From positions 2,984 through 66,983 of the forward strand of contig CAYJQV010000004.1 of assembly GCA_964372395.1 (NCBI GenBank): DNA of 64,000 nt. The letters run 5' to 3'. Position numbers and translations under genes: made by a program. The notes beneath the pieces were generated by a model. The model made no database searches. It was not told where the DNA came from and was given only the letters and a program-made list of their open reading frames with translations. Numbering within the stretch: the stretch's first letter is position 1; every line of letters starts with the position of its first letter. This stretch comes from an uncultured Planctomycetia bacterium (GTDB lineage: Bacteria; Omnitrophota; Gorgyraeia; 1-14-0-20-64-10). This document shows positions 2,261 to 49,678 of the stretch, one piece after another.

Positions 2261-2873
2261 ACGCCTCGCAGCCGATCGGACAGTCGCCGCGTACCGGCTG
2301 CAGGCCCGCCGGGCGATCGCCAGCTGGAGCCGGGGCCGGCGGGTCCCTGCCTTCCTGAAGCAGTTTGTATCGAACCTTCCCTCCGGAGCGCGGGTTCTCG
2401 ACTACGGCTGCGGGATCGGGCGCGAGATCCGCTGGATGCAGCGGGGAGGACTGCGCGTGGAGGGGGTGGACGCGACGCTGGAATTCGTGCGGGAGGCCCG
2501 CCGCCGGTGTCCGGGGGTTCCGATCCGGCACGCTCGATTTGAGAGCGTCCCGCTGGAACCGGGCGCGTACGACGGGATCTGGTGCAACGCAGCCCTCACG
2601 CATGTTCCTCCCGAAGAGCTCAGGCGCCAGCTCGCCAAACTGCACCAGGCGCTGCAGCCCGGCGGCGTCCTGGGGCTCACCCTCGCCTGGGGCAGGCGGA
2701 AGGGGTTCACGGAGCGCGATTGGATCCCGGGCAGGTACGTGGCCGGTTATGGTCGCCGTGAAGCCGCCCTGTTCCTGCGGGGGTGGCAGCTTCTGTCGCT
2801 GAAGGTGGTCTCGCGGGACGGCCGGAAGGGACGCTGGATCCAGATTCTGGCTCGTCCGGATTTGATACACTAG
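2253..2873 (+). CDS. class I SAM-dependent methyltransferase
   Basis: VLDYGCGIGRE glycine-rich SAM motif. 8-nt overlap with arfB. Confidence 0.7.
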   Translation: MNERLAADRTVAAYRLQARRAIASWSRGRRVPAFLKQFVSNLPSGARVLDYGCGIGREIRWMQRGGLRVEGVDATLEFVREARRRCPGVPIRHARFESVPLEPGAYDGIWCNAALTHVPPEELRRQLAKLHQALQPGGVLGLTLAWGRRKGFTERDWIPGRYVAGYGRREAALFLRGWQLLSLKVVSRDGRKGRWIQILARPDLIH

Positions 2874-2887
2874 AAGGGAGCCCTCTC

Positions 2888-4819
2888 ATGGAGAAGAACG
2901 GTTTTTCGGATGCAGCGGTGATCTCCTTCGAGAGCCGGCTGATGGAGCCGATGGCGGAGAGCATCCGCCGCAACGGCGGCCGGCCGGTGAGCGCTCCCTC
3001 CCTGCGCGAGGTCCCCCTGGAAGAGAACCTGCAGGCCTTCGCCTTCGGGGAGAAGCTCCTGGCGGGGAAGATCGACATGCTGATCTGCCTGACCGGCGTG
3101 GGGACGCGGACCCTGCTGCAGGCCCTCTCCACCCGGTTTGACCTGGCGAAGGTCCTGGAGGCGCTCGGGCGGATCACGGTGGTGGCGCGCGGCCCCAAGC
3201 CGATCCGGGTCCTGAAGGAGTACGCGATCCCCATCACCCTGACGATCCCGGAGCCGAACACCTGGCGGGAGATTCTGGAAACGCTGGATGAGAGCGCGCG
3301 CGGCATCTCGCTGGGGGGCAAGACGGTGGCGGTTCAGGAGTACGGGATCTCCAACGCGCAGCTCATCGAGGGGTTGAAAGAGCGCGGGGCCAACGTCCTG
3401 CGGGTTCCGGTCTACCGCTGGGACCTGCCGAAGGACACCGGGCCTCTGCTGGCCGGGGTGCGGCAGATGATCGAGGGCCAGGTGCAGGTTGCCGTCTTCA
3501 CCAACGCGGCCCAGGTTCACCATCTGTTCCGGTTTGTCTCCGGCGAGGGATTGGAGAAGCCTCTGCGGGAGGCCCTGAGGCGGGTGGTGATCGCCTCGGT
3601 GGGGCCGATGACGACGGAGGCGCTCCTGGAGGCGGGGTTGTCGGCGGATTTCGAGCCGACGCATCCGAAGATGGGGGTGCTGGTGTCGGAGCTGGCCGAT
3701 CGGGCGGAGCAGCTCGTGCGCGAGAAGAGGGAGGGCCCGGCGCGGCCCTCCTGGCGGACGCGCCCGGCCTCGGCCGGTGCGTCTGGATCGAGGGAAGAGG
3801 CCGCGTTCTTAAGGACGTGCCGGCGGCAGCCGGTTCCCTTCACCCCGATCTGGCTCATGCGGCAGGCGGGAAGGTATCTCAAGGAGTACCGGGCGATCCG
3901 GAACAAGGTTCCGTTCGCCGAGCTGTGCAGGAATCCGCAGCTCGCGGCGGAGGTGACGGTGGTGGCGGCCGGGCGGCTCAAGGCCGACGCTGCGATTATC
4001 TTCTCCGACTTGCTGCTCATCCTGGAGCCGATGGGGTTGGCGCTGGAATACGGGTCGGAGAACGGGCCGGAGGTGGCCGGGAGGGTGGCCAGCGCGCAGG
4101 AGATCGATCGGCTGGCCGAGGTGGAGCCGGCCGAGTCGCTTCCATTTGTTTTCGAGGCGGTGCGGATCGCGCGGAGCGCCCTGAGCCCGCAGGTGCCGCT
4201 CATCGGATTCTCCGGGGCGCCCTTCACACTGGCCTCGTATCTCCTGGAAGGGGGAAGCTCCCGTTCGTTCCTCCGGACGAAGCAGCTCATGCACACCGAC
4301 CCCGGGGCCTGGAAGGCCCTCATGGAGAAGCTGGTGCGGGCTCTGGTGAAGCACCTCAACAAGCAGATCGAGGCCGGCGCCGATGCGGTGCAGATCTTCG
4401 ACAGCTGGGTGGGGTGCCTCGCCCCGGCCGATTACCGGGAGCATGTGCTCGCCCATACCCAGGCGTTGATCCAAGGGGTCAAGCCGGGGGTTCCGGTGAT
4501 CCATTTCGGGACCGGGACGGCGGCGTTCCTGAAGGAAATGCGCCAGGCCGGCGGGGATGTGATCGGTGTGGACTGGAGGGTGGAGCTGGACAAGGCCTGG
4601 GAGGCGGTGGGGCACGATGTCGGGATCCAGGGGAATCTGGATCCGGCGGTCCTGCTCTCTCCACGGGAGGTGATCCGTGAGCATGTGGAGCGGATCCTCG
4701 CCCAGGCGGGTGGCCGGCCGGGGCACATCTTCAACCTCGGGCATGGTGTGCTGCCCAATACCCCGGAGGAGAACGTCCTTTACCTCGTCGAGACGGTGCA
4801 CGAGCTGAGTCGGCGTTGA
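2888..4819 (+). CDS. fused uroporphyrinogen-III synthase (HemD) / uroporphyrinogen decarboxylase (HemE)
   Basis: ATG at 2888 with a GAAGGGA RBS. N-terminal ~270 aa is HemD-like. After a Pro/Ala/Ser-rich linker the sequence ...FTPIWLMRQAGRYLKEY... is the HemE N-terminal signature, and the remainder is HemE. One continuous 643-aa ORF. Confidence 0.8.
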   Translation: MEKNGFSDAAVISFESRLMEPMAESIRRNGGRPVSAPSLREVPLEENLQAFAFGEKLLAGKIDMLICLTGVGTRTLLQALSTRFDLAKVLEALGRITVVARGPKPIRVLKEYAIPITLTIPEPNTWREILETLDESARGISLGGKTVAVQEYGISNAQLIEGLKERGANVLRVPVYRWDLPKDTGPLLAGVRQMIEGQVQVAVFTNAAQVHHLFRFVSGEGLEKPLREALRRVVIASVGPMTTEALLEAGLSADFEPTHPKMGVLVSELADRAEQLVREKREGPARPSWRTRPASAGASGSREEAAFLRTCRRQPVPFTPIWLMRQAGRYLKEYRAIRNKVPFAELCRNPQLAAEVTVVAAGRLKADAAIIFSDLLLILEPMGLALEYGSENGPEVAGRVASAQEIDRLAEVEPAESLPFVFEAVRIARSALSPQVPLIGFSGAPFTLASYLLEGGSSRSFLRTKQLMHTDPGAWKALMEKLVRALVKHLNKQIEAGADAVQIFDSWVGCLAPADYREHVLAHTQALIQGVKPGVPVIHFGTGTAAFLKEMRQAGGDVIGVDWRVELDKAWEAVGHDVGIQGNLDPAVLLSPREVIREHVERILAQAGGRPGHIFNLGHGVLPNTPEENVLYLVETVHELSRR

Positions 4820-12875: not shown

Positions 12876-13649
12876 TCAGGGACGGGCCGCGGGCATGAAG
12901 ACAAGCCCTCGGAATGACTGCCAGCGGGCGTCCCGGAACTCCCTCAGCCCGTAGAGGATTGAGGAGGCGTCCCGCCGGCAGTACGTCCGGCCCAGGCGGT
13001 CCCAGAAGGAGAAGATGCTGGCGTAGTTGGAGTTGGTCTCGGCCGGGATGTCGGAATGATGAACCCGGTGCATGTTGGGGGAGACCAGGGCCAGGCGGAT
13101 CCAGCGATCGATCCGCTGGGGGAGGGCGATGTTGCTGTGGTGGAAGAGGATGACCGGCTGAAGGACCAGCTCATACAGGACCAGATTCTTCAGGGAGATC
13201 CCCAGCAGCGGGATCACCGCCAGCCGCAGCAGCGTGGAGATCACCATCTCCCCGAGATGGAACCGGTAGGCCGAGGTGGAGTCCACCGCCGGGTCGCTGT
13301 GGTGAACGCGATGGAACCGCCAGAGGAGCGGCAGCGCATGATTGGCGCGGTGCCAGAGGTACATCCACAGATCAAAGGCGAGGAAGCCGGCCAGGAGCTG
13401 CGAACGGTCGGCCAGGTTCAGCCGCGGGAGGAGCCCGACGGCGGTGAGCTCTCCCCAGCGGGCCGAGGCGGCCACCAGTCCGCTGAATCCGAGGGTCAGC
13501 ACGAAGCCGTTGAGGAGCCCGATGCCGATGTTCCGGATCCCGTGCGTGAGCCGCTGCGGCCGATCCATGAAGAGGGGGACAACCGACTCCAGCCAGAGGC
13601 ACAATCCCAGGGCGGACAGGTGGATTGCGAAGGCCGCCTGCCCCATCAT
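12876..13649 (-). CDS. sterol desaturase / fatty-acid hydroxylase superfamily membrane protein
   Basis: Histidine boxes HRANH, HRVHH and HRVHHSD. Confidence 0.75.
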   Translation of the reverse strand: MMGQAAFAIHLSALGLCLWLESVVPLFMDRPQRLTHGIRNIGIGLLNGFVLTLGFSGLVAASARWGELTAVGLLPRLNLADRSQLLAGFLAFDLWMYLWHRANHALPLLWRFHRVHHSDPAVDSTSAYRFHLGEMVISTLLRLAVIPLLGISLKNLVLYELVLQPVILFHHSNIALPQRIDRWIRLALVSPNMHRVHHSDIPAETNSNYASIFSFWDRLGRTYCRRDASSILYGLREFRDARWQSFRGLVFMPAARP

Positions 13650-13655
13650 CGTGCC

Positions 13656-14174
13656 CTACGAAACAGCCAGCTCTTCCTCATCCCACCAGCGCAGCTCCTC
13701 GAGGATCTCTTCCTCGGAGCCCAGCTCTTCCGGCGACGGGGCCTCGTCCGTCTGCTCCAGCTCTTCCCAGAGTTTCAGGATCTCCGCCTCCTCTTGGGGG
13801 CCGATCGCCTCCGCCAGCACGATCCGATCGGATTCCTCCAGCTCCTCTTCCAGGGAACGTTCCCCCAGCTCCTCCAGGAGGGACACCTCCATCAGGATCT
13901 CGGATTCCGGGCCCACGATTCCCGGGGGGATTCCTGTCGGGCGCAATCCCGCGACGACGAGGAGCAGCGCAGCAGCCAGAGCGCCGCTCCACGCAAGGCC
14001 CCATCGGGGCTGCAGGGTCCAGCGGGGACGGAAGAGCGGTGCCGGTGCTTCGCGCGGACGGATCCGGGCCAGGACTTCCTCGCTGAACCGCTCCAGGAGA
14101 TGCGCAGGAGGGTTCTTCAATGGATGACGGCTCAGCCATCCGCGGAGCCAGGAGTCCCAATCGGCGGGCTTCAT
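13656..14174 (-). CDS. putative membrane anti-sigma factor
   Basis: ATGA overlap with the ECF sigma stop. One TM helix and a very acidic C-terminal domain. Confidence 0.5.
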   Translation of the reverse strand: MKPADWDSWLRGWLSRHPLKNPPAHLLERFSEEVLARIRPREAPAPLFRPRWTLQPRWGLAWSGALAAALLLVVAGLRPTGIPPGIVGPESEILMEVSLLEELGERSLEEELEESDRIVLAEAIGPQEEAEILKLWEELEQTDEAPSPEELGSEEEILEELRWWDEEELAVS

Positions 14175-14761
14175 CGGCCGCCCCCCGCTGAGAGGAACGG
14201 CTCCAGCAGGCCTCGCAGGCCGTGTGCCGCCCGGAAGAGGTGCGCCTTGACCGTTCCCAGGCGGCATCCCATGACCTCGGAGACTTCCTCGAGAGACATC
14301 CCATGCAGATGATGCAGCAGGAAAGCGGTGCGCTGTTTCATCGGCAGCCTCCCGAGGCCGTCTGCCAGGCGGCCTGCCAGCTCCCGGTCCGCTGCCGCCT
14401 GTCGGGGATCCTGCCGGGGGTCGGCCAGCTCAAAAAGCTCAGGGGCCTCCTCGGGAGGGTCCGCCTCGGACCGGAGGGAAACCATGGCGGGCTGGCGTGC
14501 CTTCCTTCGGAAGAAGTCCTTGCACTCGTTCGCCACGATCCGGTAGAGCCAGGTTGAAAAGCGGGATCCTCCGCGAAAGCGGCCGAGGGCGCGGTAGGCC
14601 TGGACAAAGGCGTTCTGGGCCAGATCCCGGGCGTCTTCGAAGTTGCCCACGAAGCTGTAGGCGAGCTTGCATGCGGCGAGCTGGTAGCGCTCCACCAGCT
14701 CGCCGTAGCGCTCAACCTCGCCGCCTCGCACCGCCCCAAGGATCTCCTCATCGGTGGCCAT
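14171..14761 (-). CDS. RNA polymerase ECF sigma factor (sigma-70 family, sigma-24 type)
   Basis: Region 2 (YRLAYSFVGNFEDARDLAQNAFVQAYR) and region 4 (MSLEEVSEVMGCRLGTVKAHLFRA). Confidence 0.85.
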   Translation of the reverse strand: MATDEEILGAVRGGEVERYGELVERYQLAACKLAYSFVGNFEDARDLAQNAFVQAYRALGRFRGGSRFSTWLYRIVANECKDFFRRKARQPAMVSLRSEADPPEEAPELFELADPRQDPRQAAADRELAGRLADGLGRLPMKQRTAFLLHHLHGMSLEEVSEVMGCRLGTVKAHLFRAAHGLRGLLEPFLSAGGGR

Positions 14762-14777: not shown

Positions 14778-15467
14778 TCACCTACGGTTTCCCCCGCGAG
14801 ACCCTTGGCCCCCGCGAGACCCCTGGCCCCCGTGAGACCGCGGCGAACGATGCTCTCCGCCGCGCCCAACCCCGCCGCGCCCTTCACCTCGGCCGTGGTC
14901 GCGGACCCCGTGGTCGCGGTGCGGGTGCCGCCCGTCCCGGAGGCCCTCCCTGCGGTCGTGAACGCGCTCCCTCCAGTGCGGATGGTTCTTCATGAACCGG
15001 CGGTGGGCCTCCGGGTGGGTTTCCTTCATACGCTCCAGCTTTTCCCGGCGCCAGTTCTGCCGATGCTCCAGCACCTCCCGGTAACGTTCCGGGTTCTTCT
15101 GCTTCAGCTCCGAGAGCCGCTTCTCCAGCCGCTCCTGGCGCTTCGCCTTCAGGCGCTCGTACAGCTGCGGCCGGTTTTCCTTGATCCACTGGAGCCGCTT
15201 CTGTTTCTTCTCCCGGATCTTGGCCATCGCCTGCCGGTAGGCATCCGGGTTGTTCTCCTTCAGGTACTCGAGCCGTTCACGCAGCTTGGCCCGCTTTTCC
15301 TGAACCGCCTGGCGGAACTTCTCCCTATCCGGTCCGGCGGTTCGCGCCTCCTCGCCGTATTCCTCGTCTCCCTCCGCCTGTTCCTCCGACTCCGCGTGGG
15401 CAGGCCGGCCGAGGGGAAGAATCGCAAGCCAAAGCACTGCAACGAGAAGAAGCAAATGTCTGTTCAT
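14778..15467 (-). CDS. secreted repeat protein (signal peptide; helical NPxxY/R-rich repeats; Gly/Arg-rich C-terminus)
   Basis: MNRHLLLLVAVLWLAILPLGRPAHA signal peptide. Repeated ENNPDAYRQ / ENRPQLYER / KNPERYRE units. First gene of the ECF sigma operon. Confidence 0.5.
   Translation of the reverse strand: MNRHLLLLVAVLWLAILPLGRPAHAESEEQAEGDEEYGEEARTAGPDREKFRQAVQEKRAKLRERLEYLKENNPDAYRQAMAKIREKKQKRLQWIKENRPQLYERLKAKRQERLEKRLSELKQKNPERYREVLEHRQNWRREKLERMKETHPEAHRRFMKNHPHWRERVHDRREGLRDGRHPHRDHGVRDHGRGEGRGGVGRGGEHRSPRSHGGQGSRGGQGSRGGNRR
14787..14840. repeat. 18-bp tandem repeat (about 2.7 copies; gagacccttggcccccgc-like) encoding GGQGSRGG repeats
   Basis: Direct inspection of the sequence. Confidence 0.6.
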
Positions 15468-15515: not shown

Positions 15516-15905
15516 TTACAGAGAACCGGTCAGAGGAACCCGGGGTGCACGGCGGCGCTCTTCGGGGATGCCGGGAGGAGAGATGAGCTGGCGGACGAGG
15601 GTTCGGTCCGATTCCTCCATTCGCGTGAAGGAGATCCCCAGGCGGAACCGTCCGGCGTAGGGCAGGCAGTGAACCACGCGGCCGGTGATCTGCATGAGCC
15701 CCGGCGGGTGAGCGGGGAGGGGCAAGGCAGTGCGTGAGAATTCAAGCCGAACCAGCAGGCCCCACGGGAGAGAAACGTTGCTCAGGAGGCCGAGCCCATA
15801 CTCGCTGATGTCGTAGAGGAAGGCCTCGATCGGCCCGTCCGGCTTGTACACCGTCTGCGACCGCTCCGGATCTTCATGGACCTCCACGTTTACAGGGATC
15901 GGCAT
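15516..15905 (-). CDS. PilZ domain protein (c-di-GMP receptor-like)
   Basis: ~130 aa with PilZ-like motifs. Confidence 0.5.
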   Translation of the reverse strand: MPIPVNVEVHEDPERSQTVYKPDGPIEAFLYDISEYGLGLLSNVSLPWGLLVRLEFSRTALPLPAHPPGLMQITGRVVHCLPYAGRFRLGISFTRMEESDRTLVRQLISPPGIPEERRRAPRVPLTGSL

Positions 15906-15951
15906 TGCTAGCAACTATTCTATCACCCACCGCCCAGAGGAGGCCGGTATA

Positions 15952-18900
15952 ATGGAGAGGGTTAAGGTCGCCATGCCGAACAAGACGCTGGAGGTTTTGC
16001 TCAAGGAGGGAAGGGCCTTCCCGCCGCCGGAAGCTTTTGCCCGCCGCGCGAACGTCCGGGATCCCGGCGTGTACGAACAGGCCGCCAGGGACCCATTGGC
16101 ATTCTGGGAATCGTTCGCCGGGGAGCTGCACTGGTTCAGCCGGTGGGGCAAGGTGCTGGAGTGGGAGCTGCCGGACGCCCGCTGGTTTGTCGGCGGCAAG
16201 ACCAACCTCTCCTATAACTGCCTGGACCGCCACCTGTCCGGCGCGCGCAGGGACAAGCCGGCGATCCTGTGGGAGGGAGAGCCCGGGGAGGAGCGGCGCC
16301 TCACCTACGCCCAGCTGCACCGGGAGGTCTGCCGGTTCGCGCACGCGCTCGAGCGGCTCGGGGTGAAGCGGGGTGATCGTGTGACGATCTACATGCCGAT
16401 GGTGCCGGAGCTGGCGATCGCCATGCTCGCCTGCGCGCGGATCGGGGCCCCGCACAGCGTGGTCTTCGGCGGGTTCAGCGCCGAGGCGCTGGGGGACCGG
16501 CTCCGTGATTCGCAGTCCAGGGTGCTGGTGACCGCCGATGGGGGCTGGAGGCGGGGCTCTGTGGTGCCGCTCAAGAGGAGCGCCGACGAGGCGCTGGAGG
16601 CGGCCCCCTCCGTGGAGAAGGTGGTCGTCTTCCGGCGGTTGAAGGAATCGGGCTGTCCGATGAAGCCGGGCCGGGATCTCTGGTGGGAGGAGCTCGTGGC
16701 CGGGCAGCCGGACCAGCACGAGGCGGCTCGGCTCGATTCGGAGCAGATGCTGTACCTCCTGTACACGAGCGGGACCACCGGCAAGCCCAAGGGGATCGTC
16801 CACACCACCGGCGGCTACATGGTCGGCTGCTACGCGACCACGAGGTGGATCTTCGACCTGAAGGAGGAGGACACCTTCTGGTGCGTTCCCCCAGGAACCA
16901 AAGTGATCGCGAACCCAGAGCCCAAATCCATTGAGCAGATTAAGGTCGGAGATCGAGTTCTAGCACACGACGGGAGGTACTCTGAAGTCCGTCGACTTTA
17001 CAGGCGGCACTACGAAGGCGACCTCGTAAGGATCCAGACTCTGTATTGCGGCGAACCGTTCCTGCTGACCCCCAACCACTCTGTGCTCTGCGGACGAAAG
17101 GGGAGAACAGGGATTCTCTGGAAACCGGCAGGTGAACTGACGGAAAAGGATTTCGTCTTGCTTCCGAAACTCCGAGAAAACCAAGACCGGGAATTCATAA
17201 AGATATCCGCCGTCGTCAGGGGATGTGTGGTCGTCGGCGAGAGAGTCCGGCGCCCGAAGATCCGCTTTTCCCTGCCTGAGAAAATACCCCTTGATCCTCG
17301 TTTTATGCGTTTAGCAGGCTACTATCTTGCAGGGGGAAGCGTGGCGTCCAAAGGCCGCGCACTGCAGTTCTCCTTTAATCGGCGCGAGGAGCCTTATGCC
17401 GATGACGTCCTATCTCTTTTGGAGGAAATCTTCGGAATCAGCGGAAAGAAGGCATGGATCAATAACCTCTGCGAGATCCGGGTGGGCTCTGTACTGCTCG
17501 CCGAGTTCATGCCTGCCCTCTTTGGAAGCAAAGCCCCTAACAAGCGAATTCCGGACGAGTGGCTCTGTTTTCCCGATGGAAAGCTGGCCGAGCTGCTGAA
17601 GGGTCTTTGGCGGGGAGATGGCAGTGCGGATCGGGACTCGTTCAGGTTCCACACCACATCCGAAGTTCTCGCCCACCAGGTCAGGATGATTCTAACCAAG
17701 ATGGGCTTGCTGAGCTCGATCGGTTGTCGCAAGAGGGAGCGCATTGGGCCCAGCCGGATCGGCGGCAGAAGCATCATCGCCCGGCACGATTGCTATTGCA
17801 TAAAAGTGGGCGGAAGGGCGCTCCAAAAGCTCTCTGAAATCCTCGGGGTGCGCCATCCTTTTATCGGGAAGCGCATCTCGGTTCGGCGACGCGGCATGCG
17901 CTCGAAAAATTACCTGTGGTTGCCCATCCGGTCCGTCAAGCGGGAGTATTACGAGGGCGAAGTCTACAACATAGAGACCGACAAGCATTCCTATGTCCTG
18001 AGTAACATGGCGGTCCATAACTGCACGGCTGACATCGGTTGGGTGACAGGCCATTCGTACGTGGTTTACGGACCTCTGCTCAACGGGGCGACCACCCTCA
18101 TGTACGAGGGGGCGCCGGATCATCCGGGCAAGGACCGCTTCTGGCAGATCGTGGAGAAGTACCGGGTCAGCGTCTTCTACACCGCCCCCACGGCGATCCG
18201 GGCCTTCATCAAATGGGGAGAGGAGCTGCCCGGCGGTCATGACCTCACGAGCCTGCGGCTGCTCGGCTCGGTGGGGGAGCCGATCAACCCCGAGGCCTGG
18301 ATCTGGTACCACCGGGTGGTGGGCCACGGCCGCTGTCCCGTGGTGGATACCTGGTGGCAGACCGAGACCGGACAGATCCTGATCTCGCCCCTTCCCGGGC
18401 TGACGAAGCTCAAGCCCGGCTCGGCGACCCTTCCGTTCCCGGGGATCGAGGCGGACGTGGTGGACGACAAGGGGAATCGCTCCGATTCCGGCTACCTGGT
18501 GATCCGATCCCCCTGGCCCGGGATGCTGCGGGGAATCTACGGGGATCCGGAGCGCTACCGGGCCCAGTACTGGAGCCGGTTCCCCGGCCTTTACTTCACC
18601 GGCGATGGGGCGAAGCGGGATCCGGACGGCTGCTTCTGGCTGCTCGGCCGGGTGGACGACGTCCTGAAGGTGAGCGGCCACCGGCTTTCCACCATGGAGA
18701 TCGAGTCGGCGCTGGTGGACCATCCCTCGGTCGCCGAGGCGGCGGTGGTGGCCAAGCCGCATGAGATCAAGGAGAACGCCGTGGTCGCCTTCGTGACGCT
18801 CAAGTCCAGCGTCCGGCCCGCCGATGGTTTGACGGAGGAGCTCAAGGCGCACGTGGTGCGGAAGATCGGTGCCATCGCGCGGCCGGATGAGGTGATCCTG

Positions 18901-19050
18901 ACGGCCGAGCTGCCGAAGACCCGATCTGGCAAGATCATGCGGCGCCTGCTGCGCGACATCGCGGAGGGGAAGGCTCTTGGAGACACCACCACGCTGGCGG
19001 ACGCGGGCGTCGTGCAGGCGCTGAAGGAGAAGTATGGCGAGTCTGAGTGA
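15952..19050 (+). CDS. acs: acetyl-CoA synthetase (AMP-forming), interrupted by an in-frame intein (extein 1: 15952-16881; extein 2: 18022-19050)
   Basis: AGGAGG RBS with ATG at 15952. YTSGTTGKPKG P-loop. The conserved FW|CTADIGWVTGHSY motif is split by a 380-aa insert. The C-terminus is typical Acs (...KTRSGKIMRRLLR...). Confidence 0.9.
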   Translation: MERVKVAMPNKTLEVLLKEGRAFPPPEAFARRANVRDPGVYEQAARDPLAFWESFAGELHWFSRWGKVLEWELPDARWFVGGKTNLSYNCLDRHLSGARRDKPAILWEGEPGEERRLTYAQLHREVCRFAHALERLGVKRGDRVTIYMPMVPELAIAMLACARIGAPHSVVFGGFSAEALGDRLRDSQSRVLVTADGGWRRGSVVPLKRSADEALEAAPSVEKVVVFRRLKESGCPMKPGRDLWWEELVAGQPDQHEAARLDSEQMLYLLYTSGTTGKPKGIVHTTGGYMVGCYATTRWIFDLKEEDTFWCVPPGTKVIANPEPKSIEQIKVGDRVLAHDGRYSEVRRLYRRHYEGDLVRIQTLYCGEPFLLTPNHSVLCGRKGRTGILWKPAGELTEKDFVLLPKLRENQDREFIKISAVVRGCVVVGERVRRPKIRFSLPEKIPLDPRFMRLAGYYLAGGSVASKGRALQFSFNRREEPYADDVLSLLEEIFGISGKKAWINNLCEIRVGSVLLAEFMPALFGSKAPNKRIPDEWLCFPDGKLAELLKGLWRGDGSADRDSFRFHTTSEVLAHQVRMILTKMGLLSSIGCRKRERIGPSRIGGRSIIARHDCYCIKVGGRALQKLSEILGVRHPFIGKRISVRRRGMRSKNYLWLPIRSVKREYYEGEVYNIETDKHSYVLSNMAVHNCTADIGWVTGHSYVVYGPLLNGATTLMYEGAPDHPGKDRFWQIVEKYRVSVFYTAPTAIRAFIKWGEELPGGHDLTSLRLLGSVGEPINPEAWIWYHRVVGHGRCPVVDTWWQTETGQILISPLPGLTKLKPGSATLPFPGIEADVVDDKGNRSDSGYLVIRSPWPGMLRGIYGDPERYRAQYWSRFPGLYFTGDGAKRDPDGCFWLLGRVDDVLKVSGHRLSTMEIESALVDHPSVAEAAVVAKPHEIKENAVVAFVTLKSSVRPADGLTEELKAHVVRKIGAIARPDEVILTAELPKTRSGKIMRRLLRDIAEGKALGDTTTLADAGVVQALKEKYGESE
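16882..18021 (+). mobile_element. full-size intein with LAGLIDADG homing-endonuclease domain inside acs
   Basis: Starts with Cys (CVPPGTKVIANPEP...). Block B TPNH. LAGLIDADG-like motifs LAGYYLAGGSV and LLKGLWRGDGS. Ends ...MAVHN followed by the +1 Cys of the extein. Confidence 0.85.
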
Positions 19051-20236
19051 GGTCGAGAAAAGCTCCCGGCGGACGGTCTGGCTGGAGGGGCAGGTATTGT
19101 GCCTCCTGGATCAGCGGGCCCTGCCGCACCGCAGGGTCGTCCTGCGCCTGGAGTCGTATCGGCAATCCGTGCAGGCGATCCGGGAGATGGCGGTGCGCGG
19201 GGCGGGGACCATCGGTGCCGCAGGCGCATTCGCCATGGCGCAGGCGGTGCTTGCTGCCCCGCCGGACCGATTCCAGGAAGAGATCGAGCAGGCGCGGGCG
19301 GCTGTGAGCGGCGCCCGGCCCACAGCCAAGAACCTTTCCTACGGTGTCGAGCGGGTGGTGCGTGCGGTCCGCTCCGCGCGCGGTGTGGAAGAGGCCAGGG
19401 TGAAGGCGGCGGCGGAGGCGCAGGCCGTTTACGACGACGATGTCCGGATGACGGAGAAGATCGCCGAGGCAGGCCTGGGGGTGCTGCCGGGCGGCAAGGC
19501 GGTGCTCACCCACTGCAATGCCGGCTGGCTGGCGTACCCGGGATGGGGCACGGCGCTGGCGCCCCTGTACCTGGCCCACTCCACCGGCCGCCCGGTCTTT
19601 GTGATTGCGACGGAGACGCGCCCGCGCAGCCAGGGGGCGAAGCTGACGACCTGGGAGCTGTCCCAGGCCGGGGTGCCGCATGCGCTGATCGCCGACACCG
19701 CGGCCGGTTCCACCATGGCGCAGGGGGAGATCGGCGCGGTGATTGTGGGAGCGGACCGGATCGCGGCCAATGGGGATACCGCCAACAAGGTCGGGACCTA
19801 CACCCTGGCGGTTCTGGCGAAGGCGCATGGGATCCCGTTTTATGTCGCGGCCCCCTCCCCTACCTTCGATGCGAAGTGCCCATCCGGCGCCCAGATCCCG
19901 ATTGAGGAGAGGGACGAGCGGGAGGTTCTGGAGGTGGAGGGGGCGGTGGACGCCGGCGCCGGGACGCTCGCTTCGGTTCGCGTAGCCACACCGGGCGTCC
20001 GCGCCAGGAACCCGGCCTTTGACGTGACCCCGGCTTCCTACATCACCGCCTTCATCACCGAGTGCGGGTTGATCCAGCCCAACCGGGAATCGGTCGGGCG
20101 ATTCTTTGCCAGCACCGCTGAAGGAAGAGCCCCAGCAGCGCTCCAACCCAGTTCAACGCCACATCCGACCACTGAAAAAACCTCTGCGGCAGGAATCCCT
20201 GGACGGCCTCCTCAGCCCAGCCGACCAGTAAGATAA
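19034..20236 (+). CDS. mtnA: S-methyl-5-thioribose-1-phosphate isomerase (eIF-2B alpha/beta/delta family) with ~50-aa low-complexity C-terminal tail
   Basis: ...GADRIAANGDTANKVGTY... and ...NPAFDVTPASYITAFITE... are MtnA signatures. 17-nt overlap with acs. Confidence 0.8.
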   Translation: MASLSEVEKSSRRTVWLEGQVLCLLDQRALPHRRVVLRLESYRQSVQAIREMAVRGAGTIGAAGAFAMAQAVLAAPPDRFQEEIEQARAAVSGARPTAKNLSYGVERVVRAVRSARGVEEARVKAAAEAQAVYDDDVRMTEKIAEAGLGVLPGGKAVLTHCNAGWLAYPGWGTALAPLYLAHSTGRPVFVIATETRPRSQGAKLTTWELSQAGVPHALIADTAAGSTMAQGEIGAVIVGADRIAANGDTANKVGTYTLAVLAKAHGIPFYVAAPSPTFDAKCPSGAQIPIEERDEREVLEVEGAVDAGAGTLASVRVATPGVRARNPAFDVTPASYITAFITECGLIQPNRESVGRFFASTAEGRAPAALQPSSTPHPTTEKTSAAGIPGRPPQPSRPVR

Positions 20237-44970: not shown

Positions 44971-47109
44971 ATGAAACGAGACGCTCCACCCCACACCAAT
45001 CGGCTGATCCGGGAAAAATCCCCCTATCTCCTCCAGCACGCGGACAACCCTGTGGACTGGTACCCCTGGGGGGAGGAGGCCTTCGAGAAGGCCCGCCGGG
45101 AGGAGAAGCCGATCTTTCTCTCCATCGGCTACTCCACCTGTCACTGGTGCCACGTCATGGAGCGGGAATCATTCGAGGATCCGGAGGTGGCCTCCATCCT
45201 GAACGAGCATTTTGTCTCCATCAAGGTGGACCGGGAGGAGCGGCCGGACGTGGACAGCCTCTACATGCAGTCGGTCATCGAGATCACCGGGCAGGGGGGC
45301 TGGCCGCTGTCGGTCTTCCTGACGCCGGAGCTCAAGCCGTTCTACGGAGGGACCTACTTCCCGCCGGAGGACCGCTGGGGCCAGCCGGGCTTCAAGAGAC
45401 TTCTGCTCGGCCTGGCCGACGCCTGGAAGAAACAGCGGGACCAGATCCTCGACTCCAGCGAGCGGCTGGTCCGGCTGCTCCGGGAGGGGGAGGGATCGCT
45501 CGGTTCGGGTGAGCTTCTCCTTTCGGAAGAGGTCCTGCGCACCGCCTACCGGCTCTTCGAGGCCACCTTCGATGAGCGGTTCGGCGGCTTCGGCTCGGCG
45601 CCCAAGTTTCCGTCGGCCCACAACCTCTCGTTCCTGCTCCGGTATTGGAAGCGGTCCCGGCAGGAGCGCGCGCTCGAGATGGTGGAGGCGACCCTCGAGG
45701 CGATGGCGGCGGGCGGGATCTTCGATCAGCTCGGAGGCGGCTTCCACCGCTACTCCACCGACGCCCAGTGGCGGATCCCCCATTTTGAGAAGATGCTCTA
45801 CGACCAGGCGATCCTCTCCCGCGCCTATCTGGAGGCGCATCAGGCAGCGGGGAAGGAGGCGTACGGCGCGGTGGCCCGCCGGATCTTCGACTACGTCCTT
45901 CAGGATCTGACCGGGCCGGAAGGGGCCTTTTATTCAGCGGAGGACGCCGACAGCGAGGAACCCGCGACGGCGCCCTCGGCACCAAGTGCCAAGCCGGTAC
46001 CTGGTACCGAAAAGAAGGAAGGGGCCTTCTATCTCTGGACGGAGAAGGAGATCGAGGAGCTTCTGGGTCCTGAGCGGGCGAAGACTTTCAGGGCCGCCTA
46101 CGGCGTGACGCGCGGCGGCAATGCGCTGAGTGACCCCACAGGGGAGCTGCGCGGAAAGAACGTCCTGTACCTCGCCCGCCCTGCCGGAGAGATGCCGGAG
46201 CTGGCGCGGGAGAAGGAGATCCTCCTGGCGGCGCGCCTTCGCAGGCCGAGGCCGCACCGGGATGACAAGGTTCTGACCGACTGGAATGGCCTCATGATCT
46301 CCAGTCTCGCCTTCGGCTCGCGTGTCCTGGCTGAGCCGCGGTACCGGGAGGCGGCGGAAAGGGCGGCACAGTTCATCCTGGCCCGGCTGATCCGGGAGGA
46401 CGGCCGGCTCCTCCACCGCTGGCGGGATGGGGAGGCGGCCATCCTGGGGACCCTCGAGGATTACGCCTTCCTGATCCACGGCCTCGTGGATCTCTACGAG
46501 GCGACCTTCGAGGCGGTCTACCTCGCGCAGGCCAAGCGGCTGACCGGGGAGATGGTGCGCCTCTTCTGGGATGAATCTCAGGGCGGTTTCTTCCTCGCCG
46601 GCTCCGACGCGGAGCTGCTGCCGGTCCGCCAGAAGCGGTTCTCCGACGGGGCGATCCCCTCAGGGCACTCCATCGCGGTGCTCGATCTGGTCCGGGTGGG
46701 GCGGCTCACCATGCAGCGGGACTGGGAGGCAAGGGCGGAGCAGGTGCTGCGGTCTCTGCTCGAGAAATCGTCAGCGCCGGAATCGGCCCGGCACCCGGGT
46801 GCTTTCCCCCAGATCCTGGCCGCGCTCGATTTCCTGCTGGGCCCCTCGATGGAAATCGTGATCGCCGGAGCCCCGGAGGACCCGGCGACCGGAAAGATGA
46901 TCCGGGCGGTCTGGGAGAGATTCATCCCCAACCGGGTGGTCGTCTTCCATCCGCCCGGCCCGGCCGGCGAGGCGATCGAGAAGGTGGTCCCCTTCGTGGA
47001 AGGCCAAGTTGCCCAGGAGGGCAAGCCGACCGCCTACGTCTGCCGGAACTACGCCTGCGACCTGCCGGTGACCAGCGTGGAGAAGCTCCATGAGCAGCTC
47101 GAGCGATAG
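44971..47109 (+). CDS. thioredoxin-domain protein of the DUF255/YyaL family (N-terminal Trx-like domain + six-hairpin glycosidase-like domain)
   Basis: ...[29 protein letters not shown]...STCHWCHVM... is the hallmark of this family. An alternative GTG at 44884 would add a signal-peptide-like extension. Confidence 0.8.
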
Positions 47110-49678
47110 GGACGCTCGGACCGTTCCGGCTTCCGGCGTCCATCTTCCCAGAATGTTCCGCTGGCAAGCGGAGGAGATCTTCTTTTTCCTGGACCCTGAA
47201 TCCCCCCACTGGATCGCCACCGATGCGCGGGCGGCCAGGATCATCGGCTGGCTGGAGGAGGGCTTGACCGGCGAGCCGCTCCTTCATCGCTACGCCCAGG
47301 CCGAGGGGCTTGCGGTGGAGAAGGCCTGGCTGCACCTGCACGACTTCACAGGGGCGCTGTTGCGCTGCGGGTTCGCTCAAACCCAACCGGCCCAGCCGAA
47401 GCCTTACCTCGGCCGGGCCGCTTACGCCGCTGCCGGCGCCTTGCGGGAGCTCTGGCTCCACACGAACAACATCTGCAACCTGAGCTGCACCCATTGCCTG
47501 GTGGACTCCGCCCCATGGGTGAAGGACTGGGGCCTTCCGACGCCGCAGATCCCCGAGCTGGTGGACGAGGCGGCGGCCCTCGGTGCGGACCGGTTCTATC
47601 TGACCGGCGGGGAGCCGTTCATGAGGAAGGATCTGGGCCGGATCCTCAGCCACATCACCGAGCGCCGGAAGGCGGAGGCGATCGTGCTCACCAACGCGAT
47701 GCTGCTCAAGGGAGAGCGCGGCGGGGAGCTGAAACGCCTGCCGAGGGAGCGTCTGCGGTTTCAGGTGAGTCTGGATGGGGCGACTCCTGCAACCAACGAC
47801 CGGATCCGGGGCGTCGGCTCCTTCGAGCGGACGCTGGAAGGCCTTCGCTGGCTCAACGCCCACGGCTTTGAAACCTCTCTGACCACCGTGGTGACCCGAG
47901 CCAACCTGCAGGAGCTGCCGGGGCTGGCCCGCCTCTGCCGGCAGGCGGGCGGCCGGGTGCAGCACCTCATGTGGGCTCATCGCCGGGGCCGGATCCTCTC
48001 CGGGACGGCAGCGGACGATTTCCCAACGGCGGAGGAGCTGGCCGCGGCGGTCCGCCGGGTCCGGCGCGTCGCGGAAGAGGAGGGTGTCGCGCTGGACAAC
48101 TGGGAGACGGTCAAGCAGCGGGTCAACGGCCCCCCCGGGGTCAAGTACGATCTGGGCAACGCCTGCTGGGATTCCCTCTGCATCTATTCCGACGGGACGG
48201 TGTACCCCTCCGCGGCGCTGGCCAATTTTCCGCCGCTCGCGCTGGGCTCCCTGCAAGGATCCGGCCGGGAACCGGGCCGCAAGCCCGACCGGCTCGCCGA
48301 GATCTGGCAGAATTCACCGGTCGCCCGGACGTTCCGCCGGATGAGCCTGGTGGACAAGCAAACCCTGGCGGAGGATCCTTTCCGGTTCCTCACCGGAGGG
48401 GGGGACATCGAGCACTCCTTCTGGTTCAACCTCAACGGCGAATCCCCCGCGGCTCCCATCGCCCCGGAGCGGCTCCGCCGGATCCTGGCGGGGCCGGATC
48501 CCTACCATCCGCTCTACGTCGCGCTCATGAAGGATGCGATGGCCGAGATCGCCCGCCGCCAGCGCGATTCGATCAACCGCCGCTCCGGCTACGATGTGCC
48601 GCGGATCCTCCATGCCATGGGGCAGGGGGCGATCCACTGCGCCACGGAGGATCTGGCGGTGACCGAGGAGGTGGATGTCCGGACGCTCCATTCCAACTGC
48701 GTCCTGGCATTCGACGTGGACAAGCCCCGGCGGCTGGTGCGCGAGTACTACGGAAAGGCCGCTTTAAAACCGGTGGCGGAGCTCTGCTGTCCGACGAAGT
48801 TCGATCCATCCCTCGTCGGGCACATCCCCCAGGAGGTGGTGGATCGGTTCTACGGCTGCGGCTCGCCGGTCACCCTGGCGGGGCTCCGGCCGGGCGAGAC
48901 GCTGGTCGACCTGGGCTCGGGCGCCGGGATTGACTGCTTCATCGCGGCCAAGCTCGCGGGGCCGACCGGCAAAGCGATCGGCATCGATATGACCGATGAG
49001 ATGCTCAAGGTGGCCAATGCGAATCGGCCTGTGGTCGCCGCCAACCTCGGCTACGACGTCGTCGAGTTCCGCAGCGGGTACCTCGAGCAGGTGCCGGTGG
49101 AATCCAAGTTTGCGGATGTGGTCACCTCCAACTGTGTGGTCAACCTCTCGCCGGACAAGCCGAAGGTCTTCGCCGAGATTTGGAGGATCCTGAAGGACAA
49201 CGGCCGGATGGTGGTGGCCGACATCGTCTCCGACCGGCCGGTGCCGGCCCGCCTGAAGGTCAATCCCCAGCTCTGGGGCGAGTGCACGGTGGGCGCCCTC
49301 ACCGAGGCGGAATTCCTGGCTGGGTTGGAGGAGGCCGGCTTCTACGGCCTGTCTGTCTTGAAGAAGAGCTACTGGAAGGCGATCGAGGGCTACGACTTTT
49401 ATTCGGTGACGGTGCTGGGGTTCAAGTTCGAGAAGACGTCCGGCTGCCGCTTCATCGGTCAGCGGGCGATCTACCTCGGCCCCTTCAAGTCGGCCATGGA
49501 CGAGGAAGGGCATCTCTTCCCCCGCAACGAGCCGGTGGAGGTCTGCACCGACACCGCCGCCAAGCTGGCCAAGCCCCCATACGCCGGCAGATTCATCGTC
49601 ATTGCGAGCCCCGGCCCTTCCGCCGTTGCGGGCCCCGAAGGGGCGAAGCAATCTGCGTGCGGCCCCGGCTGCTGCTAA
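47090..49678 (+). CDS. fusion protein: radical SAM / SPASM-like domain (ArsS-like) + arsenite S-adenosylmethionine methyltransferase (ArsM)
   Basis: CNLSCTHC (CxxxCxxC) radical SAM cluster. ...[14 protein letters not shown]... auxiliary-cluster-like Cys. C-terminal half has ...ELCCPTKF...[52 protein letters not shown]...SNCVVNL...WGECTVGA... with all ArsM catalytic cysteines. An alternative start ATG lies at 47153. Confidence 0.75.

Follow-up and report, generated by a model that had tools for sequence, protein, structure and literature searches.

The solved inteins closest in fold to the element described here, TliVMA and PhoVMA (7QSU, 7QSS, 7QST), PI-PkoII (2CW7), PI-SceI (1VDE) and PI-PfuI (1DQ3), each have a two-motif LAGLIDADG endonuclease set into a Hint splicing domain. 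They share a Cys at position 1, a TxxH in block B, a His-Asn end and a Cys at the +1 position of the host, and each interrupts a highly conserved nucleotide-binding enzyme, the hosts being V-ATPase, DNA polymerase and ribonucleotide reductase. According to the main text of a 2015 survey, 62–67% of inteins lie in proteins of COG category L and 8–22% in category F (PMC4760082). Here we describe an insert of the same architecture in acs, the gene for AMP-forming acetyl-coenzyme A (CoA) synthetase (Acs), in a stretch of 64,000 nucleotides (the window) from an uncultured Planctomycetia bacterium placed in the Omnitrophota by GTDB (assembly GCA_964372395.1, contig CAYJQV010000004.1, positions 2,984 to 66,983). 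Judging from the sequence and a structural model, we hold it highly probable that nucleotides 16882–18021 of the window encode a class-1 intein with an embedded LAGLIDADG homing-endonuclease domain, an intein that is likely competent for splicing and whose endonuclease is most likely inactive. It shares the residues listed above with the solved inteins and, like them, interrupts a conserved nucleotide-binding enzyme, but it is only 13–20% identical to them, its host is a metabolic adenylate-forming ligase, it has no extra DNA-recognition domain of the size found in PI-SceI (380 residues in all versus 454–537), and its first LAGLIDADG motif is without the acidic residue.

The acs open reading frame runs uninterrupted on the forward strand from an ATG at 15952 to a stop codon at 19048–19050, a frame of 3099 nucleotides encoding 1032 residues, with the ribosome-binding site AGGAGG 8 nucleotides 5' of the ATG. 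The precursor gene (15952–19050) comprises three parts, all on the same strand. By Pfam and alignment, the N-extein (15952–16881, 310 residues) carries ACAS_N and the first half of the AMP-binding domain, including YTSGTTGKPKG, and ends in LKEEDTFW. The insert occupies exactly nucleotides 16882–18021 and has 380 residues, beginning CVPPGTKV and ending SNMAVHN; its ends coincide exactly with the splice residues. The C-extein (18022–19047, 342 residues) begins with the +1 Cys (TGC, 18022–18024) of CTADIGWVTGHSY and carries the rest of the AMP-binding domain and AMP-binding_C. An earlier sequence-only reading of this DNA had proposed the 1032-residue frame and the limits of the insert, and its coordinates and sequence statements hold to the base. 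The insert differs from its surroundings in composition, with a GC content of 0.56 versus 0.67–0.68 in the exteins and a third-position GC of 0.66 versus 0.88–0.92. The same 1032-residue gene is called in a second assembly, GCA_947085785.1 (contig CAMTXW010000070.1; locus L026), where it differs by a single nucleotide, located in the N-extein outside the intein and changing one residue (R32H), and where Pfam domains follow in the order ACAS_N, AMP-binding, Intein_splicing, LAGLIDADG_3, AMP-binding and AMP-binding_C. Because the gene recurs in this second assembly, the structure of the insert is not an accident of assembly.

The profile search that the sequence-only reading had proposed came out in favor of an intein: the insert matches Pfam Intein_splicing (PF14890) at 46.5 bits (cut-off 35.8) and LAGLIDADG_3 (PF14528) in two stretches at 49.1 bits (cut-off 22.5), with weaker Pfam matches of the Hint family at its N-terminus. 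TIGR01445 (intein_Nterm) falls just under its cut-off (20.1 versus 24.5), and in NCBIfam the insert matches only the intein segments of models for the intein-containing proteins Tes, IF-2, Pol II large subunit, RNAP A'', RecA and GyrA. The class-1 hallmarks named in that reading are also present. Cys1 (codon TGC, 16882–16884) is the block A nucleophile, the block B motif TPNH (Thr63 to His66) lies at 17068–17079, and blocks F and G, EVYNIETDKHSYVLSNMAVHN (17959–18021), end in His379-Asn380, directly followed by the +1 Cys of the Acs motif. When the window intein was aligned with 24 related inteins, Thr63, His66 and Asn380 were invariant in all 25 and Cys1 and His379 were at least 90% conserved. 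An AlphaFold2 model, built on the alignment of related inteins, has a mean predicted local distance difference test score of 92.6 and a predicted template modelling (TM) score of 0.90. Searched with Foldseek, it gave TliVMA (E 3.5e-21), PI-PkoII, PhoVMA, PI-SceI and PI-PfuI as its best PDB matches, with a probability of 1.00 to solved inteins; PI-PkoII is also the nearest solved relative by sequence (E 8e-9). The central domain is matched by I-DmoI, a LAGLIDADG enzyme that stands on its own, with a TM score of about 0.7 when normalised by target length. This match and the modelled LAGLIDADG helices (residues 139–151 and 232–246) place the endonuclease domain at approximately residues 105–335 of the intein (17194–17886). 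A clean in-frame insertion, a block A Cys with a block B TxxH, a His-Asn^Cys junction (here and below the caret marks the splice or insertion point), a profile match and a Hint fold, marks of a class-1 intein, were each found. We also considered, and rejected, a bacterial intein-like domain. Such Hint domains occur in non-conserved parts of variable proteins and as a rule lack both an endonuclease and a canonical +1 nucleophile, while this insert lies in an invariant Acs motif, contains an endonuclease domain and ends in HN^C.

Removal of the insert restores a 652-residue Acs, as had been claimed. The in silico spliced product matches NF001208 (acetate--CoA ligase) as a single stretch over profile positions 5–646 of 649 with 1002.5 bits, versus 984.8 bits in two stretches for the precursor (cut-off 657), and on TIGR02188 the corresponding scores are 958.1 and 940.5 bits (cut-off 725). 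Alignments of the product with 8RPK and with the Salmonella enterica Acs (1PG3) are gapless over the junction and place the insertion point at Trp329^Cys330 and Trp302^Cys303, respectively, and intein-free orthologues show an intact FW^CTADIGW at this site. The GWVTG segment just downstream is Gly308–Gly312 in 1PG3 numbering, and we take the acetate pocket to be lined by its Val310 and Thr311 along with Val386 and Trp414. The role of Trp414 in Acs is borne out in PMC10455477. The intein adjoins the Acs active site, as is usual for inteins. The window contains no second acs and no second intein; an Rfam scan gave no family match, and scans for promoters and terminators added nothing.

The sequence-only reading had further put acs outside the usual intein hosts. 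This stands in so far as no description of an Acs intein was found in the literature searched, no acetyl-CoA or CoA-ligase host is named in the main text of the 2015 survey (PMC4760082; its supplementary tables lie outside this comparison), and no 'intein-containing' Acs model is among the NCBIfam matches. The insertion is no one-off, however: an intein occupies this Acs site in at least 25 other public sequences. A word-indexed protein search with the intein alone returned 24 relatives at 27–37% identity over the full length, none of them in Acs, and the same search with the intein and 40-residue flanks was swamped by 8000 intein-free Acs proteins; since the word index missed the Acs alleles, its result wrongly suggested that the insertion was unique. 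An exhaustive HMMER search of 1.84 billion representatives yielded 9274 intein relatives, with a 949-residue AMP-binding protein holding a same-site intein of 51% identity as the top match and two more Acs-intein fusions, both N-terminally truncated. Genomes and metagenomes were also searched with a junction DNA pattern encoding [V/A]-H-N-C-T-A-D-x-x-W-[V/I]-T, the junction lying between N and C, for which we estimate about 0.1 chance matches in 596 Gb. It matched 9 of 185,579 species-representative genomes (two Aenigmatarchaeota, one Pacearchaeota, one Patescibacteria, four Planctomycetales and one unclassified bacterium) and 14 metagenome contigs, one identical to a genome-match contig, and every match is an Acs-family gene with an intein of 378–385 residues between W and CTAD. 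Viral contigs held no Acs-intein junction by this pattern and only distant intein relatives (at most 31% identity), and no phage vector was identified among them. Of the 120 proteins most closely related to the spliced Acs, the intein is present in three, namely that of the sibling assembly, P0303 and P0305, and absent from 117, among them orthologues at 80–82% identity; the closest named relatives come from Omnitrophica and Planctomycetota metagenome-assembled genomes (MAGs) at 74–77% identity.

The other Acs inteins (L001–L009, L012–L025, L028, L029, P0145, P0147 and P0211) occupy the same W^CTAD site, are 378–385 residues long and belong to the same family as the window intein (33–76% identity), but they mostly lie in short Acs of the NF003313 type (Planctomycetales, Patescibacteria) or in long Acs of DPANN archaea, and all have the Glu of motif 1; only L016/P0383, L028 and L029 share the host type of the window. 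As far as can be told they are unnamed in public records, which label the genes 'AMP-binding protein' or 'acyl-coenzyme A synthetase'. The word-indexed relatives have mostly IscU/NifU-type hosts, in addition to a flavin adenine dinucleotide (FAD)-dependent oxidoreductase of Patescibacteria and a DNA methylase. These uncharacterised inteins (P0001–P0022) share with the window intein the CVPP start, the motifs GYYLAEG and GLWRGDG and an LHN or VHN end before Cys, but differ in their hosts and sites, the latter being, for example, GNPxC^GD in IscU, and all keep the motif 1 Glu. The lineage of the window intein seems to favor metabolic over replication proteins.

Several further observations were made in these searches. 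The group of related inteins in IscU/NifU-type iron-sulfur scaffolds (P0004–P0016) uses the conserved GNPxC^GD cysteine as its site. One cluster of intein-bearing Acs (P0211, P0300 and P0301) comes from MAGs labelled Methanosarcinales archaeon (MFQ6056264.1 and MFQ6120950.1, annotated 'AMP-binding protein, partial'). In L022 (Ga0247727_10007354) the open frame 5' of the intein has 703 codons, about 400 above a normal N-extein, which may be explained by an upstream gene without a stop codon in this high-GC contig or by a genuine fusion. Two Logan contigs (L010 and L027, runs ERR4904391 and ERR4904392) both break in the acs C-extein about 670 nucleotides 3' of the intein, at a point corresponding to about 18693 in the window; strain heterogeneity, such as a mix of alleles with and without the intein, or simply coverage may account for these breaks. 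Many Acs entries on long ENA and NCBI contigs (P0053, P0069, P0075, P0088, P0090, P0109, P0128 and others) are truncated, frameshifted reading frames with Arg/Gly/Pro-rich out-of-frame tails, database artefacts able to mimic split genes. Short Acs fragments on long contigs were considered as split genes and rejected, being ordinary frameshifted frames with an intact WCTADIGW.

Comparison of gene neighborhoods shows a polymorphism for presence and absence of the intein at one orthologous locus. The order acs then mtnA is common to intein-bearing loci (the window, its sibling L026, L028 and L029) and intein-free loci (L030 and L031), acs is preceded by a PilZ-domain gene (15516–15914, reverse strand; identified from the gene calls of L026, L030 and L031) in the window, in its sibling and at both intein-free loci, and the intein-bearing loci have an ECF sigma-factor gene farther upstream. 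The intein-free alleles that the sequence-only reading had proposed to look for thus exist in relatives, with an intact FW^CTADIGW and the same PilZ–acs–mtnA neighborhood. At L030 the candidate target is GAGGACATTTTTTGG followed by TGTACCGCAGACATCGGTTGG, and the sequence around the empty site is also given as GAGGACATTTTTTGG followed by TGTACCGCAGACATCGG. The downstream gene mtnA (S-methyl-5-thioribose-1-phosphate isomerase; 19034–20236, forward strand) starts 17 nucleotides inside the end of acs, and the same overlap between acs and an IF-2B-family gene is found in L028, L029 and L030, which suggests that acs and mtnA are a conserved, translationally coupled pair.

The hosts of the same-site inteins fall into two paralogous types. 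By NCBIfam the window, its three close relatives and the DPANN genes encode long Acs of the NF001208/TIGR02188 type, the Planctomycetales genes encode short Acs of the NF003313 type (840.6 bits, cut-off 729), and the Patescibacteria Acs groups with the short type by extein sequence (CTADPGW). Between the window and the Planctomycetales short-type Acs the inteins are 59–66% identical and the exteins 40–43%, whereas between the window and the DPANN long-type Acs the inteins are 33–36% identical and the exteins 49–54%. In neighbor-joining trees the inteins of the window, L028 and L029 fall within the clade of Planctomycetales inteins, but the corresponding exteins cluster with other long Acs; the trees are without support values, and no direction of transfer is read from them. 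The disagreement between intein and host trees points to movement between paralogous genes, and its simplest reading is that the intein moved between the two Acs paralogues via their shared W^CTAD site. At every locus the intein is 3–12 GC points below its exteins. Among the three closest alleles the ratio of nonsynonymous to synonymous substitution rates (dN/dS) is about 0.08 in the intein, including the endonuclease domain, and 0.11–0.32 in the exteins, values that are rough because dS is saturated; the low ratio in the intein indicates that the endonuclease has been under purifying selection in the family. Sporadic presence among close orthologues and discordance of intein and host phylogenies, the two signs of a homing-allele family, are both found here.

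Of the two LAGLIDADG motifs reported by the sequence-only reading, both are present in the profile match and in the model, but motif 1 lacks its catalytic acidic residue. Motif 1, LAGYYLAGG (residues 144–152, 17311–17337), has Gly151 (GGG, 17332–17334) at its penultimate position, the same codon being found in the sibling assembly, and this codon is one transition away from GAG. A Glu codon (GAA or GAG) stands at this position in 23 of the 23 Acs-intein relatives that cover it and in nearly all more distant relatives, and PI-PkoII aligns a Glu opposite Gly151. Motif 2, LLKGLWRGDG (residues 238–247, 17593–17622), keeps its catalytic Asp246, and Gly245, Asp246 and Gly247 are invariant. The fold and both motifs of a LAGLIDADG endonuclease are therefore there, but not an acidic residue in each motif. 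In a review of homing endonucleases, the acidic residue in the penultimate position of each motif is described as the metal ligand, as one of the two best-conserved residues of the active site and as indispensable in I-DmoI (PMC3384342). With the Glu of motif 1 lost, the window endonuclease is probably inactive and most likely cannot make the double-strand break on which homing depends. The WhiA/DUF199 domains offer a parallel, as these inactive domains keep the LAGLIDADG fold and carry a non-acidic Gly or Arg at the metal-binding position (PMC3384342), like motif 1 of the window; WhiA, however, acts as a transcription factor on its own and has lost its two acidic residues as well as the basic ones, while the Acs intein has one residue changed and its domain within an intein.

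We suggest the following model. The 1032-residue precursor would be translated as one chain and be catalytically inert, with a 43-kDa domain placed 7–8 residues ahead of GWVTG, a segment that contributes to the acetate pocket. Splicing would begin with an N-S acyl shift at Cys1 and continue with transfer of the thioester to Cys+1; cyclisation of Asn380 would then free the intein, and an S-N shift would leave a native Trp-Cys peptide bond in a 652-residue active Acs of about 72 kDa. The intein would have spread by endonuclease-driven homing into the conserved site TGG^TGY-ACN-GCN-GAY and would in the process have crossed between the short (NF003313-type) and the long (NF001208-type) Acs paralogues. 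In the lineage of the window, a single A-to-G change (GAG to GGG) would have removed the metal-binding Glu of motif 1, and the intein would now be a fixed, immobile passenger, persisting because an imprecise deletion would destroy Acs.

Several points weigh against this reading, in addition to the unsupported trees and saturated rates noted above. The endonuclease domain is complete and confidently folded in the model, and the window intein has five unique substitutions at otherwise invariant positions, no excess over the 1–8 found in its relatives. With so few unique substitutions and an intact domain, the change from Glu to Gly at position 151 looks recent; either inactivation is indeed recent, or the Gly variant keeps some activity or another role. 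Block F, moreover, has an Asn where many class-1 inteins have an Asp, although this Asn is typical of the whole family, and both splicing and cleavage are deduced from the residues and the fold. If the Gly151 endonuclease were active, or if nicking sufficed for homing, the intein would be fully mobile and still spreading in the population. The intact fold, the purifying selection on the domain in the clade, the lack of other damaging changes and the retained Asp246 all agree with this, but it would have to accommodate the loss of an acidic residue that is the most conserved of the active site, essential in I-DmoI and kept in 23 of 23 relatives, and its replacement by the very residue that inactive WhiA-type domains have at exactly such a position (PMC3384342), and we regard full mobility as unlikely. 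A failure at the other step, in which the intein no longer splices and acs is disabled as an inactive 115-kDa fusion, could draw on the unusual block F Asn and on splicing having been read from the protein alone, sequence and fold. Yet the nucleophiles and the block B and G residues are all intact and invariant across the family, the exteins are under purifying selection with all Acs motifs kept, and the block F Asn is common to the whole family, including alleles in many genomes; loss of splicing is accordingly very improbable.

A different account would have the insert retained as a regulatory switch, its splicing being conditional and blocked, for example, by a disulfide between Cys1 and Cys+1 or by another redox state. 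Both splice nucleophiles are Cys, the intein persists despite an apparently dead endonuclease, and conditional splicing is documented for other inteins, with RadA and DnaB among the examples in the part of that literature consulted. Nothing specific to the acs locus supports it, however, the impossibility of imprecise deletion explains persistence equally well, and close relatives manage without the intein, so we give this account little credence. The more specific proposal, that after loss of the endonuclease the intein was kept as a post-translational switch gating acetate activation by the redox state of Cys1 and Cys+1 or by some other signal, is if anything a longer shot; were it true, the switch would be a control layer on a central carbon-metabolism enzyme beyond the well-known lysine acetylation of Acs. 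Finally, a metagenome-assembled source, and public assemblies in which frameshifted Acs frames are common, might raise the suspicion that an assembly error or frameshift has joined acs to a separate endonuclease gene. This we reject as next to impossible, given that the 3099-nucleotide frame is unbroken and present in two assemblies, that more than 25 independent contigs have the same architecture, and that the insert begins and ends exactly at splice residues. The reading we prefer thus remains that of a splicing-competent intein with a probably disabled endonuclease.

The genes surrounding acs are ordinary chromosomal housekeeping genes, among them mtnA, metF, a glcD-like oxidase, a hemD-hemE fusion and greA. 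The fusion (2783–4819, forward strand) is a single frame of 678 residues combining uroporphyrinogen-III synthase (HemD, about residues 50–308) and uroporphyrinogen decarboxylase (HemE, residues 342–674). A 229-residue frame at 14778–15467 on the reverse strand has a signal-peptide-like N-terminus, a long Lys/Arg/Glu-rich body of helical appearance and a Gly/Arg-rich tail; it has no NCBIfam match, and its counterpart in the sibling contig adjoins an ECF-type sigma-70 gene. A database look-up for the frame at 13056–14309 found nothing. Further downstream, an 862-residue protein with radical-SAM and class-I methyltransferase domains (47090–49678, forward strand) is preceded by a DsbH/thioredoxin-like protein of 741 residues and followed by genes for a glycosyltransferase and a ferredoxin.

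The Acs host and an allele family that crosses both paralogues and domains of life appear undescribed, while the biology itself is canonical, with no new mechanism. In practical terms, Acs-intein genes are easily mis-called as over-long or fused, and a 380-residue intein having a Cys at either junction could be tested for use in protein engineering. AMP-forming Acs adds an adenylate-forming enzyme of central metabolism to the list of intein hosts, and the family occupies one site in two paralogous Acs families, in DPANN archaea, Patescibacteria and PVC-type bacteria. As we read it, the family provides a compact natural example of the homing cycle, from invasion through a cross-paralogue jump and fixation to the probable decay of the endonuclease.

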